From: Eledone cirrhosa
Taxonomy: Eukaryota
NCBI GenBank assembly: GCA_964016885.1
Contig: OZ024740.1
Span: forward strand, 257,300,001-257,364,000
Direction of reading: 5' to 3'
DNA length: 64,000 nt
Made by a program: the position numbers and the translations under genes. Numbering within the stretch: the first letter of the stretch is position 1; each line of letters opens with the position of its first letter. This document shows positions 6,820 through 30,779 of the stretch, in pieces. The notes below the pieces were generated by a model. The model saw only the letters and a list, made by a program, of their open reading frames with translations. It made no database searches and was not told the origin of the DNA.

Positions 6820-8073
6820 TAATAAGGGTTGACGGACCCAGCATATTTATCAATGCCAGTACCGGTTGTATCTCAGCGCACTCAATGGGCAATGTAAGAT
6901 ACATTACCAGAGTATACACATAGTTATTTGCCTCAACACAACAGACGTAAAACGGGTGCCTATAAGGTTCTCGGACTCGAGTTTCTGCCGCACTAATGCA
7001 GCAGTAAGGTGCACTGCACCATCTGTCTGCATATATTATGAAACAATGCACAATCGGCTTACGTCTGGATCGGTCATCAGACAGACTGTTAGAAACCTTT
7101 GGTAATGGAGTAGTTATAATTTGTGTTTTTCACTTTCTAATTAAATATATATATATATATATATATATATATATATATTTATATATATATATATATATAT
7201 ATATATATATATATATATATATATATATATATATATATATATATATATATATATATATATATATATATATATATATATATATATATATATATATATATAT
7301 ATATATATATATATATATATATATATATATATATAAACGGAAAAATGAAACGAAATTTCATTTCCCACTCGGCTGTTACTTAAATATAAGTATGTATACG
7401 TACATACATATATGTATACAGACGTACAGTAGTATGTATATATATATATATACATGCACACATACATACATGTACGTATGGATTCACCGAACATTTATTA
7501 TAATGCTCGGTGTATTTGTAAACAGACATCCCGTATTAAGCCGTAGTGTCTAGCAACCATCGTTGCTCGTTCGTTGAACACTGACAAAGGAACGCAGGAA
7601 GGTATCCGTTGCTGACGATAGCTAATAAGTTTGAAACTAGTACAGCGTTCCTTTGTCAGTGTTGAATAAACGAGCAACGATTGTTGCTAGACACTACGGC
7701 TTAATACGGGATGTTTGTTTACAAACACACCGAGCATTATAATAAATGTTCGGTGAATCCATACGTACATGTATGTATGTATGTGTGCATGTATGTATAT
7801 ATATATACATACTACTGTACGTCTGTATACATATATGTACGTAGGTATACATACTTATATATATATATATATATATATATATATATATATATATATATAT
7901 ATATATATATATTTAATTAGAAAGTGAACAACACAAATTATAACTACTCTATTACCAAAGGTTTCTAATAGTCTGTCTGATGACCGATCCAGACGTATAT
8001 TAATAACGTCTGTGATCCTGAAACCTTTGGTAATGGAGTAGTTATATTATTTGTGTTCACTTTCTAATTAAAT
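6820..8073. repeat. Repeat family with inverted copies 7061-7145 / 7911-7996, a direct partial copy at 8020-8073, and a distant inverted copy at 22435-22520
   Basis: acgtctggatcggtcatcagacagact..ctttctaattaaat occurs with its reverse complement. gttgacggacccagcatatttatcaatgcc is reversed at about 22485-22512. Confidence 0.7.
7337..7857. mobile_element. HHR family A, head-to-head palindrome (minus copy 7337-7595, plus copy 7594-7857)
   Basis: Arms are reverse complements that share private variants. HHR gCTGACGAtagctaataagtttGAAActagTA at about 7606-7648. Confidence 0.8.
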
Positions 8074-8132
8074 AGCTGTGTTCTATAGACACCGCACTCT
8101 TTTTTCCTTTGCTTTTTCTTCGGAATTACCTA

Positions 8133-8239
8133 ACACACACACACACACACACACACACACACACACACACACACACACACACACACACACACACACACAC
8201 ACACACACACACACACACACACACGCACACACACACACA
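8133..8239. repeat. (CA)n microsatellite
   Basis: Direct observation. Confidence 0.95.
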
Positions 8240-8249
8240 TAAAGTCTAT

Positions 8250-8355
8250 GAAGGCGCGTGGTTGAGTGGTTAGAGTATTGGATTCGCAATCGTGAGGTTG
8301 TAAGTTAGATTACCAGACTGTGTCCTTGGGCAAGACACTTTATTTCATGTTGCTC
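8250..8355 (+). mobile_element. tRNA-derived SINE head (second family); copies at 13113-13220 (+) and 44735-44841 (-)
   Basis: ggcgcgtggttgagtggttagagtattggattcgcaatcgtgaggttgtaagttagatt (A/B-box-like) followed by tgtgtccttgggcaagacactttatttcatgttgct. Confidence 0.7.
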
Positions 8356-10341
8356 CTTCTACCCGGATTTGCGATTAGAAAGACCAACGGAAACATTGTG
8401 TCCGCGGTCCGATTTGACGATCGGCTGTCGATATATATTTATGAATGTATGTATAGTATATTTGGCAATATACCGTATGTGTAATTAAAAGCATTTAGAA
8501 GACCATTTGCTATGACTTTTAAAGTAGTGACTATGTCACTTACTTATTTTCTACAAAAAAAATATATATATATTGATTAATTAAAGGTTAATTAGTCTTA
8601 ATATTTAAACATCTCAATGAGTGGAATCATTCAGAGAAGCAATATTATATATTAAATTTAAGCGAGAAAAAAACTCTCTTTATGGGAGTACAAACCAAAA
8701 TACACAAAAACAATATTTTATCTAAACTCGTTTATATACAGATCTCCCTGCCATGATTCCGTTTTCGGAAGAACTCATATTGAGCCGCCAATAATTGAAG
8801 AATCCGCAATACTCTCCAGTGGAGTTTAAATTCTTCAATAGCTAAGAGACAATAAGTTATACTTATTGTTTCATTTGCCGATGTAGCATGCTGAACAAAA
8901 CACCACGATGCGTAGTAGAAATATTACGATATAAAAAATCCCTTAACATATTAGAACTATGCTTAGTTCGATAAAATAAACTACCAGTAATGCACTGGGT
9001 AATTGCTGGCCTTGTGCCTAAAGTAGAAACAAGTATTATTAGGCTTATGATGCCGCTAGAAATAGTAGTGGAATCACTCAGAGTAGATTATTTCGGATTC
9101 TTCAATTATTGGTGGTTCCAATAAGAATTTAGATACAACTAATGTTGACTGGCTATCGTCAATTAAAGTGTCTTGCTCACAAGCATACAATCATAAATTA
9201 AACAACCTTATAATCATGAGTGCCCCCTCATTATACAATACCCAAGCGCCTTCCATATTGCCTAGAAATGTCACAAAAACATAATCACAACACGTATCAC
9301 GAAAGAGAAATCGTGCCCTACACAACCAAAACGCCCAAAGCTAAAACGCCCCAAACGACTACAAATACAAGATCATAGAACCACTGTGGGTCTCCCCTAG
9401 TGGGAAGATCTGCACCACAAAATGTTTATTAAGCCTGCTATGAGCCCTGTCTGAATATTGTTGATCAGTGGGAGGTTAAAGTAGAAGACAATAATGTGTT
9501 GTCCATGTGGTGTACTATTTAAGTAGTAGCGTTTCGGAGTTCCAACTCTCATGCGTTGCTTTCATAGCCCCCTGAAGTAACATTTCTGAAGCAAATGACT
9601 GGAGAAGGTCACTTATGACCTACCCAGGCTAGTGGTAGGTTTCGATATATTTACAAGAAGTTAATTTCAACATATCTATAATTACTCATCATATCGTCCG
9701 TACACCTGTAATGTGAAGATGATCACAGCTGAATTCGAATTCAGATCTTAATCTTCCCATCATCGTATCATATAGCGTTATATTTGACGTTCTAACGACT
9801 TTTAAAGATACATCCACAATTTAACATGAATTATTTCACCTATATTCGACATGACTTTGAGTGATATATGAAGAGATATAAAATAGGATTCCTAATTTAG
9901 ATGTACAAAAAACATGACCATTCCTCTGCGTTAGGTCACCCTGACAAATATCTTACAAGGTCTACAGAAATTTGAACCCATATTCAGCGAAATTCACTGA
10001 TAAGGGAAATACACATACAAAATATATAGAGATAATCTGCTAGTGCTTATTTTTCTTTGGTGCTGGTAAGAAAAGGTTTTTAACATTGTAGATCATTGAG
10101 AAAGGAAATCGTCTGTTGTCTCTTCTGGTAACGTTTTGAAGGGTTATTGAGATAATGGGGAATTGAGAAATAGATAGACCGAGAGAAAGAGAGAGAGAGA
10201 GAGGGGGAGAGAGAGGGAGAGAGAAATAATGTAAGTGAGAGTGGATGAGTGTAGGGGAGAGATATTTAAAATGCAATTTTACATTTAGATTTTAGTAACA
10301 ACGCATTGAATTACTTCTTTCATAGTTCCGCACTATATGTA

Positions 10342-28463: not shown

Positions 28464-28689
28464 TATATATATATATAATGTAATTAATTTATATTCATAC
28501 ACGGAATAAGAGCCCTACGTAAGTATTGAAGGTACAACTATGACCATCTATCGAGATTGTAAAAGCGATCAAATGTGTGCCCTAGTCATCAGACGCTTGG
28601 ACGAGTCTGAAGGTGCCGTTAACAATTGTGGTGTATAAATGCTTCATTATGAAAAACAAATATTTATATATTAACGTAGTATAACAAAA

Positions 28690-28995
28690 GGAGATAACTC
28701 ATGATGTTATTTTTAAATGGCTATGTTCTTGTTCGTGTGTAGTCAATATAGTGGATGTTTGGTATTATGTGCTGGTATGTGATATATAGATGCTTTTATT
28801 TATTAAAGTTATTGAATATCTTCTATCTCGTTCAAGCCCCTTATAACTAGGTTATAGTTATTTGATCGTTCCTACATTGTGTGGAGATGTTCATAATTGA
28901 ACGTTGAAACCTTAGGGAGTGGTTTTCTTCCTTATATATGTTTTAGCTGAAGCTAGTTATGTGACTATATTTGCTACCTTAAATTCATAGTGAAA
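28690..28995 (-). mobile_element. Highly degraded PLE GIY-YIG remnant
   Basis: YEFKVANI..AKTYIRK resembles the VYEFKC..TYIGK consensus. An isolated CTGATGA lies downstream at about 28586-28592 (minus). Confidence 0.35.
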
Positions 28996-29002
28996 GACCT
29001 TA

Positions 29003-29160
29003 TATATATATATATATATATATATATATATATATATATATATATATATATATAATATTACGTTATATTATATTATATTATATTATATTATATTATATTA
29101 TATTATATTATATTATATTATATTATATTATATTATATTATATATTATATTGTATTATAT
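29003..29160. repeat. (TA)n followed by (ATTAT)n
   Basis: Direct observation. Confidence 0.95.
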
Positions 29161-30369
29161 TGTCTTAGGTTTCTTTAAACCTCACAGAAACTATATCATG
29201 TGCATAACACAAAGATGGAGCGGTATAGAAGTCCCTGAATTGATGTAACTGATAATAATGCAGGTTGTCAGATGTGACTTGCACGTCTGGTCATTCTTAT
29301 ATAAAATTGAACCTACACACCATATAACAGGCCGTAATTAAAATGCCACACCTTATGAACATTATAAAGTTGTTTCAATCTTGCATAACACCGCTTAATT
29401 TGCCGGTGAAATTCAATTTGTTTTGATAGCAAGCACATGTCCATAAATGTCTTTTTTACTGAAATATGTTTGAGGAAAAATATAATAGTATATACGAAGC
29501 CACTTTACATTTAGATACAGGATTAATTTGTAGTTTAATTATTTACCTATAATAACTACTTTTAGATCAGGTAGTTTAAATTAATAACAGTTATTATAAC
29601 ATTGTAATCTGATATGTATAATTTTATACAGACTTTCGCTGAAAATTTTAATGTATAAATCTAGCTAAGTCAACGAAAAATAATTGTTTAATTATGTATC
29701 TTTCTATATTCATTTATTGATACCTCACTGTCTTCTATCATAATATAAATAAGATTAATACCAGTGTTTTACCGATAATTTGTGTGCCGTTGAAATCTTC
29801 TGATAAAGAAGAATTAATTTTAAACTTTAATTCTTACAAAATTATTAATTCGCTTTTCTCTTTTTTATTTTTTTGTTTATGTTTAGTATTTTTTATATAT
29901 TGTTACGAATTAATCTTCATAGTTTTTCCTGTGGTGATACACCGTCGGTACTAAAAGTAATAATTCATCGAGTATTTATATAGAAATTCCAAAATTACAG
30001 GGCCAATATTTATGAAATAAATTGCTCGTGTTTCATTTACATCTAGAATCGCTAATCCAATTTAGATATCGGGATGAATCGACTTCAAATATGCTGTATC
30101 ATGATTTCACATATAAATACTCCATGGCTTATCACTTACAGTACCTACTTTTGAACAATACAGGAAAAAATATGAAACAAAATTCGTACGTTCGGTCAAA
30201 AACCATTATATGTTGACATCATCTTCGATTACATGTTACACACATTCACTAATTCAGCTAATCGAAACTGATTACTACTATAATCTGTCTGCCTCTCTGT
30301 CTTTCTCTATCTTTCGCTCTCTCTCTGTATATATATATATATATATATATATATATATATATATATATA

Positions 30370-30779
30370 TATATGAATGCATATATAGTGTATTTTGTAA
30401 TACACTGTATGCTTAATTAAAAGCATTTTGAAGACCTTACCCTATTGTTTTAAAGTAGTGACTATGTCACTTACTTCTTTTTTTCAGTAAACAAAGGGAG
30501 ATAAGCTGACAGATCTCTGTTTCGTACTGTTAGTACTCCTCAGAGCTTAGCACTCCCTTTGCCTGCTGAAAATTATGAATGTTGGATTCTTATAGAATTC
30601 CAGTAATAATCAGTAACAGATCATACAGAGCGGTTGCCGGTCTAGCAAAAATTGAAAATTAGAATTGGTGCTCAGAAATAGCGATATATATATGACCCCA
30701 ATTTATCTCCCTTTGTTTGCTGAAAAAAGAAGTATGTTACATAGTCACTACTTTAAAACAATAGCGTAAGGTTTCAAAA
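30370..30779 (-). mobile_element. HHR family B element with an inverted 3'-tail copy
   Basis: 30426-30503 versus 30703-30779 inverted. The tail is homologous to 8440-8550, 13305-13415 and 44540-44650. Confidence 0.75.
30481..30572 (-). ncRNA. Intact full-length type I hammerhead ribozyme (family B)
   Basis: AAAGGGAG-TGC-TAAGCT-CTGAGGA-GTAC-TAACA-GTAC-GAAA-CAGAGATCT-GTC-AGCTTA-T-CTCCCTTT. All core bases present; GUC cleavage triplet. Confidence 0.9.

Follow-up and report, generated by a model that had tools for sequence, protein, structure and literature searches.

The window analysed here, the whole stretch of 64,000 nt from Eledone cirrhosa (contig OZ024740.1, positions 257,300,001 to 257,364,000), contains short non-coding repeats that bear predicted hammerhead ribozymes and lie in microsatellites. 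These repeats are probably, although by no means surely, ends of Penelope-like elements (PLEs) derived from two reverse-transcription events, and the points at which they stop would owe little to cleavage. In two families, A and B, the inverted arm of a head-to-head pair starts 2-4 nt past the predicted cut, and in neither of them cleanly at the cut.

Architecture of the inverted pairs

The pairs of families A and B are both arranged head-to-head with their 3' ends reaching into runs of (TA)n or (CA)n(TA)n, which confirms the layout of the original prediction, and the hammerhead motifs that it proposed for the two families were also recovered. Signed positions are relative to the cut.

7145..7335, (TA)n flank left of pair A
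7337..7595, minus strand, family A inverted arm, +3/+5 to +261, including the 3' tail
~7337-7380, minus strand, family A 3' tail on the inverted arm, ~44 nt, missing from the forward copy
7594..7595, family A junction microhomology, GC, 2 nt, common to both arms
7594..7863, plus strand, family A forward copy, from -49 within the 5' strand of the extended stem I, without tail, ending in (TA)n
7607..7647, plus strand, predicted minimal type I hammerhead of family A, core 7612, palindromic stem III, GUA, cut 7642/7643
7856..7912, (TA)n flank right of pair A
30363..30699, minus strand, family B hammerhead-bearing copy, with the longer 3' end (to +145)
30489..30563, minus strand, predicted type I hammerhead of family B, core 30543, GUC, cut 30508/30507, extended stem I to +18, z -3.4
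30703..30780, plus strand, family B inverted arm, +4 to +83, without tail, running into (CA)n(TA)n

In the pairs tested, an inverted, 5'-truncated copy adjoins the 5' end of its partner head to head, and the check for target-site duplications found the ends of the pairs in dinucleotide runs. For the hammerhead-bearing copy of family B, the 5' limit (-192) is an assumed one, as the window holds no second copy of its first 150 nt. The tail is present on one arm only, the inverted arm of A reaching +261 versus +217 for the forward copy, the forward copy of B reaching +145 versus +83 for the inverted arm, and the inverted arm being the longer one in a further family, E. Because the ~44 nt tail of A is missing from the forward copy, the inverted arm was not copied from the forward cDNA, and a second template is needed.

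These features bear on a snap-back origin, in which a cDNA would fold through the strands of stem I or through a palindrome and copy itself into the inverted arm. Self-priming has been the interpretation given to palindromes at such junctions in rotifer PLEs; moreover, the forward copy of A begins within the 5' strand of stem I (at -49, from where on it aligns with the 23.6-kb copy), and the inverted arm of B is wholly contained in the forward copy. However, the forward start at -49 pairs with +14, leaving the arm at +3 to +5 out of register by 9-11 nt, a mismatch for which an in-register fold-back through stem I was rejected in A. Also, in A and E the tail is found on the inverted arm and is missing from the forward copy, and the B junction shows neither palindrome nor overlap, so that self-priming appears unlikely.

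The joining of two cDNAs is supported instead by the tail mismatch of A, by the 2-nt self-complementary overlap at its junction and by the PLE protein of Anolis, which, according to passages of PMC11167929, extends both target strands in vitro. Therefore, the part of the original mechanism that stands is the head-to-head joining of two cDNAs, whereas run-off from a hammerhead-cleaved RNA as proof of cleavage in vivo is not demonstrated.

Predicted hammerheads and other copies

The descriptor scores were 12.5-21.8 for families A (three copies), B and E, versus 8.6-11.6 for the best match per shuffled window (four shuffled windows), being the hammerhead of family B the highest with 21.8. Rfam at its threshold does not confirm these motifs: against Hammerhead_1, family B reached only 12.2 bits, with an E-value of 3.7; the search on the family A hammerhead gave no match, and the 97 Rfam hits of the whole window at E up to 1 included no hammerhead. 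Pattern scans also returned four viral loci and one metagenome locus, which were rejected as chance matches of an 18-23-nt pattern only.

Family E is a third hammerhead family that the original prediction overlooked. Its pair and the other family A copies are as follows.

5513..5915, plus strand, family A single copy, from -180, hammerhead cut 5692/5693
23061..23857, family A 23-kb pair (counter-example), in three parts
23061-23443, inverted arm of the 23-kb pair, reading through a mutated hammerhead to -116
23463-23517, plus strand, fragment of the 23-kb pair, starting at +25
23522-23857, forward copy of the 23-kb pair, intact hammerhead, cut 23643/23644
40105..40630, family E pair (counter-example), hammerhead core 40487, cut 40541/40542
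40105-40183, family E inverted arm, start at ~+39 inside a TA run, carrying the tail

The 23-kb and 26-kb pairs had been presented as breaking the rule of a start at the cut. The first does so, with ends at -116 and +25, but the second has no convincing hammerhead, its best score (11.3) falling within the shuffle range. In family A, the first 33 nt of the 5.5-kb copy equal the terminal 33 nt of the copies at 6.8, 7.3 and 24.7 kb, which makes the unit a partial tandem, an organisation seen in this family only. Tandem units each with a complete hammerhead, a feature of non-LTR retrozymes, were absent from the window.

The palindromic pairs at 6.0, 7.9, 8.8, 14.0, 14.3, 15.5, 24.3, 26 and 29.9 kb were scanned for half a hammerhead ahead of the start of the arm, and the only close sites among the nine were a GUC at 14391, with the arm at +11 and without a good stem I, and a doubtful site at 6.0 kb. 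No autonomous PLE linked to family A or B was found. A decayed frame at ~20.9-21.4 kb, which by its motifs we take to resemble a PLE RT, has no tie to either family, and Pfam, PDB and one homologue search returned nothing for it.

Position of the arm starts relative to the cut

The family A arm had been placed near the cut and does lie close by; however, the GC at 7594-7595 also fits the start of the forward copy and thus matches both arms, so the real start is at +3 to +5 and not at the cut. For family B, a start within 0-3 nt of the cut had been claimed, and again the arm is close, but unbroken homology begins only at 30703 (+4), with 30700-30702 ambiguous. A start at +1 in B requires two neighbouring substitutions, with a probability of ~0.006 at the 7.5% divergence of the arms, versus 0.06-0.31 for a chance match.

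A reading based on cleavage would have one cDNA copied to the 5'-OH end of a cleaved RNA, losing 2-4 nt as it is joined through microhomology to a second cDNA from an uncleaved or circular RNA. This run-off is conceivable but doubtful. In its favour, the stops of both arms lie 2-4 nt beyond the cut and well within stem I, not at its entry (+17/+18). Also, the HDV-like ribozyme of R2 offers a precedent, since there the ribozyme cut sets the 5' junction of the genomic copies, with microhomology and untemplated bases (Eickbush 2013, passages of PMC3774820), although R2 involves another ribozyme and element class, with its cleavage assayed and its junctions counted. The 6.0-kb pair, with its start at +6 of an isolated half motif (GAAA-stem-GUC), would be a weak possible third case; however, this half motif has no 5' core, fails the stricter filter and gives no hammerhead fold.

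Against run-off, neither arm starts at +1, and the cut is ignored by two of the four hammerhead-bearing pairs in the window, the other two being near it. Of the independent 5' ends in the window, 16 in all and spanning -358 to +175, two lie at +3 to +5 and the other 14 away from the cut. Under uniform truncation, the probability of two or more ends near the cut is 0.017-0.098 for the 16 ends and 0.001-0.005 when only the four inverted arms are counted, with the interval in both cases chosen after seeing the data. Moreover, minimal PLE hammerheads cleave poorly in vitro, and for the Anolis PLE, passages of PMC11167929 describe normal insertion in vitro by hammerhead mutants, in the one PLE tested, and no RNA-seq reads ending at the hammerhead cut.

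A further caution comes from the window itself, where the cut falls exactly on the inner edge of stem I, so that a peak there alone would not prove cleavage. Run-off is therefore not established, given ends that are 2-4 nt short, other pairs that ignore the cut, this coincidence of cut and stem I edge, and the Anolis data.

Read evidence for family A

Reads were placed on the family A reference 23524-23823 for 4 of the 23 listed runs. Among the six top loose ends shown per run, none lay at 23644-23648 (X1, 14,392 contigs; X21, 43,300 reads), and the top ones trace to indels private to the reference (23568, 23661) and to the TA-rich part. Thus no loose end dominates at the cut, but a modest peak may have escaped notice, as 726 loose-end rows and 58 joint rows lie beyond those listed. 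A depth step of ~2,700 reads near +4 in a RAD run was rejected as support for the cut because it agrees with the length of the RAD reads (147.5 on average): candidate enzyme sites (TGCA/CATG) are located at +143 to +149, and 1,945 loose ends at the step stop after at most 19 family letters, not entering foreign sequence. Two strand-switch joints listed in run X4, from another organism, are at +61 and +73, away from the cut, and may sit at divergence boundaries.

The motifs look maintained, which counts in favour of run-off, as the stem I pair 23610:23646 stays pairable across the read subfamilies (A-U, G-U, U-G) and none of the 38 variant positions listed falls in the 16 core and stem III positions (P=0.11).

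The reads also bear on a purely DNA-level origin, without reverse transcription, through MITE-like foldbacks or through later inversion or gene conversion between nearby repeats. The two A arms are 95.2% identical and 85.6-90.4% identical to other loci, so arms within a pair are more alike than other copies, and a clear hammerhead is missing from several of the window's other palindromic pairs. However, the variants common to both A arms also characterise a large subfamily of the reads (6,350 of 12,465 at 23646), which makes local conversion unneeded. Also, each locus has its own arm lengths and spacer, a PLE-type tail sets the outer ends apart, copies in a single orientation or in partial tandem occur, and differing junctions with fixed 3' ends in the same family are already suggested in the window. 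A DNA-level origin is thus very improbable.

Comparison with known elements

The layout, with an inverted 5'-truncated partner, a tail on one arm, a (TA)n target and a hammerhead, is the published PLE insertion signature, head-to-head inverted copies, an extra tail on one arm and, in some clades, (TA)n targeting having been described for PLEs. In passages of Arkhipova 2013 (PMC3846280), Craig 2021 (PMC8557442) and Frangieh 2024 (PMC11167929), endonuclease-bearing PLEs share with the window the head-to-head inverted 5'-truncated partner, the optional one-arm tail, a small junction overlap, a partial tandem unit, an AT-rich or microsatellite target and a hammerhead near the 3' end. In contrast, the copies in the window have no ORF, and their tails measure ~44-60 nt versus the 30-40 of published PLEs. 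The same passages do not link the inversion point to the hammerhead cut, and in those of PMC8557442 the role of the hammerhead in these elements is called unclear.

With regard to hammerhead motifs already described, the type I core, the short palindromic stem III (A and E) and the extra base between positions 9 and 10.1 (A) are common, and the occurrence of motif pairs on opposite strands, 100-700 bp apart, had already been noted; family B differs in a long stem III, which might allow folding as a monomer, and both A and B in a stem I that reaches 17-18 nt past the cut. Animal non-LTR retrozymes, according to passages of PMC7229834 and bioRxiv 10.64898/2026.07.22.740005, have in common a non-coding ~450-nt unit with a type I hammerhead and a likely derivation from a PLE pseudo-LTR, but unlike them (PMC7229834), the window has no tandem of two complete hammerhead units.

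Proposed mechanism and implications

For the favoured double-primed insertion, a PLE protein acting in trans would nick both strands of a (TA)n tract, and each nick would prime one cDNA, one from the start of the tail and the other from an inner start. According to PMC11167929, the PLE protein of Anolis makes nicks in AT-rich DNA and begins reverse transcription at two sites, which define the tail. Both cDNAs would then terminate early, and their 3' ends would be joined via a few paired bases, GC in A and none visible in B. The stop points would be scattered and may slightly favour the edges of stem I, and the ends at +3 to +5 would be part of this scatter or bias. In favour of this reading are also the start of the A forward copy at -49, 3 nt inside the outer edge of stem I (-52), and the closer likeness of the two A arms to each other (95.2%) than to other loci. 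What counts against such scatter is the stop at +3 to +5 in two families that are unrelated, for which the chance is 0.02-0.10 over all ends and lower for the inverted arms.

The window brings new families with an architecture that was already known, and self-cleavage of the RNA in the animal cannot be demonstrated from two cases. A bolder and rather improbable generalisation is that one of the two cDNAs in Penelope-type double-primed insertion regularly runs off at the end of a hammerhead-cleaved RNA, the junctions then forming a genome-wide fossil record of cleavage in vivo. The only in vitro system found PLE hammerheads dispensable (passages of PMC11167929). A peak of junctions at the cut site that required an intact catalytic core would supply genomic evidence, of a rare kind, for in vivo cleavage, and the question could then be tested from assemblies alone.

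Predicted hammerhead motifs

Junction positions are numbered from the predicted cut, +1 being the first base of the 3' product, and the counts are drawn from the window plus one read alignment. The whole 64-kb window has a GC content of 37.7%, with plentiful (TA)n and other microsatellites, and its DNA is of animal type and may be cephalopod-like. A descriptor search returned type I hammerhead motifs in three families of short repeats:

Core 5670: family A motif
Core 7612: family A motif
Core 23613: family A motif
Core 30543, minus strand: family B motif
Core 40487: family E motif

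Motifs A, B and E score 12.5-21.8, compared with 8.6-11.6 for the top match per shuffled window (four block-shuffled windows), and are plausible candidates; in family F the core is present too (2244; 41582, minus strand), but with a score inside the shuffle range. Stems III of A and E are short and palindromic, as in the minimal hammerheads of Penelope-like elements (PLEs) that act as dimers (PMC4209133). The predicted family B hammerhead has a fold z of -3.4, but its Rfam Hammerhead_1 score is only 12.2 bits (gathering threshold, 34), and an Rfam search of family A gave no match. Across the reads, stem I pair 23610:23646 is seen as A-U, G-U, and U-G, and none of 38 variant positions, the part given of a longer list, coincides with any of the 16 that make up the core and stem III (P = 0.11); the predicted motifs are probably maintained.

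The family E pair (40105-40630), from a third putative hammerhead family, has a long stem II, a palindromic stem III, a head-to-head arrangement and a one-sided tail. Family F copies, with a hammerhead-like core, lie at 2078-2361, 41465-41751, and 19194-19247; two of them, 82% alike, share a start at -194, perhaps where the unit really begins.

Junctions of the head-to-head pairs

The original prediction placed the start of the inverted arms at the ribozyme cut, as a sign of cleavage in vivo. Two pairs are concerned:

7337-7595, minus strand: inverted arm A
7594-7863, plus strand: forward copy A (cut 7642|7643)
30363-30699, minus strand: hammerhead copy B (cut 30508|30507)
30703-30780, plus strand: inverted arm B

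Both inverted arms start near the cut, but not exactly at it. Forward copy A can be aligned to the family A copy at 23.6 kb starting at 7594 (-49), and because GC at 7594-7595 also continues inverted arm A, the start of this arm is +3 to +5. In B, the first base of unbroken homology is 30703 (+4), placing the start at +1 would require two adjacent substitutions, and inspection of the joint revealed neither overlap nor palindrome.

The A arms are 95.2% alike (8 of 165 columns differ) versus 85.6-90.4% between loci, and eight states common to both, missing from the other three family A copies, mark a large read subfamily (6,350 of 12,465 reads at 23646). Inverted arm A extends 3' to +261 and the forward copy to +217, so the tail is not derivable from the forward cDNA; in B the longer 3' end belongs, conversely, to the hammerhead-bearing copy (+145 versus +83). 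An in-register stem I fold-back was rejected as the source of junction A, its fold pairing -49 with +14 and not with +3 to +5, the observed arm start. Forward arm A spans the cut, so its own template must have been uncleaved or religated RNA, irrespective of the template of the inverted arm.

The 23-kb and 26-kb pairs break the rule, as the original prediction already noted. At 23 kb the inverted arm passes through a mutated hammerhead to -116, followed by a short, templated-looking duplication and a forward fragment from +25; the 26-kb pair, one of nine more palindromic pairs examined, has no convincing hammerhead. Arm 23061-23443 is the sole inverted arm reading through the hammerhead, and its two core changes (at the first base of the core and at the U in the cleavage triplet) may be later decay. 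The family E inverted arm starts at about +39, within a TA run.

The 6.0-kb pair starts 5 nt beyond an isolated GAAA-stem-GUC (13 such sites per 128 kb of strand), a filter chosen post hoc with the site already seen; having failed a stricter filter and being without 5' core or hammerhead fold, it was left uncounted. Further inverted pairs lie at 6039-6549, 7910-8074, 14322-14439, 15483-15654, 24305-24636, 26266-27358, and 29904-30188; at 6.0 and 26 kb one arm has an extra stretch before the microsatellite, resembling a PLE tail. Partial hammerhead-like cores occur at 14372, 15107, 27112/26508, and 30945.

Truncation points and reads

Within the window, two of 16 independent 5' ends of families A, B, E, and F fall at +3 to +5 and the other 14 elsewhere, counting the triplicated B fragment once, excluding a possible degraded A fragment at about 22.3 kb, and assuming the forward limits of B and E. 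Under uniform truncation, P(≥2) is 0.017-0.098 for 5-10 nt windows, and 0.001-0.005 if restricted to the four inverted arms of hammerhead pairs. This excess near the cut is suggestive only, since window and pattern were picked after the fact. Since the inner edge of stem I and the cut are by definition one position, a test for a peak needs core-dead subfamilies as control.

Four of 23 sequencing runs were aligned to 23524-23823 at 80% likeness, giving 14,392 contigs (X1), 43,300 RAD reads (X21), and, for two other organisms, 6,038 and 2,163 contigs. Copies of family A are clearly numerous. None of the best six loose ends per run, from a longer list, falls at 23644-23648, the smallest of these six comprising 15 contigs in X1 and 1,945 reads in X21; a modest peak there may lie lower in the list. 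Among the opposite-strand joints listed there are two, both in run X4, at +61 and +73. Depth in X21 rises from 12,465 at 23646 to 15,176 at 23654, a step read as a library artefact because the reads end physically there and TGCA/CATG sites follow 143-149 nt further downstream, close to the mean read length of 147.5.

Other elements in the window

Segment 42746-47612 matches 8162-13825 (98.8%) in inverted, circularly permuted form, is opened exactly at 10341|10342 with neither gap nor overlap, and has one copy of the ~800-bp direct repeat bounding 8162-13825. This fits a reinserted DNA circle formed between the direct repeats; an assembly artefact is a conceivable alternative. A decayed reading frame at ~20900-21420 has motifs that we take to recall PLE reverse transcriptase, an identity that Pfam, PDB, and one homologue search did not confirm. 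Several decayed non-LTR retrotransposon copies, partly tandem, occupy ~50000-64000 (RVT_1 match at 55132-56337, E 1e-24), and a ~200-bp dispersed repeat family with internal 57-bp tandems is found at 28256-28468, 32535-32971, 45169-45365, 46118-46326, and 60313-60495.

Relation to Penelope-like elements

Inverted 5'-truncated partners, a 30-40-bp tail at one end, and microsatellite targets are known for PLEs from PMC8557442 and PMC3846280, the latter giving head-to-head as the most frequent form and favoring self-priming at palindromes. According to PMC11167929, the protein of the Anolis PLE nicks both strands and extends them, two reverse transcription starts defining the tail. The pairs described here have this head-to-head geometry, one-sided tails, a GC overlap in A, and scattered 5' ends. 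A PLE protein acting in trans would use opposing nicks in (TA)n to prime two cDNAs, their 3' ends then being joined through microhomology.

That the inverted arms are run-off products from a hammerhead-cleaved RNA end, with cleavage in vivo, is a less likely alternative. R2 is a precedent for a 5' junction set by a ribozyme (PMC3774820). For the Anolis PLE, PMC11167929 describes hammerhead cleavage as protein-aided, yet mutants insert normally, and zero RNA-seq reads end at the cut. The literature searched, which lay outside subscription papers, showed no study connecting the inversion points of PLEs with the hammerhead cut.

Finally, bioRxiv 10.64898/2026.07.22.740005 proposes a PLE pseudo-LTR origin for non-coding hammerhead units. 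The head-to-head pairs are genuine and belong to a known type, and the families that carry them are new.
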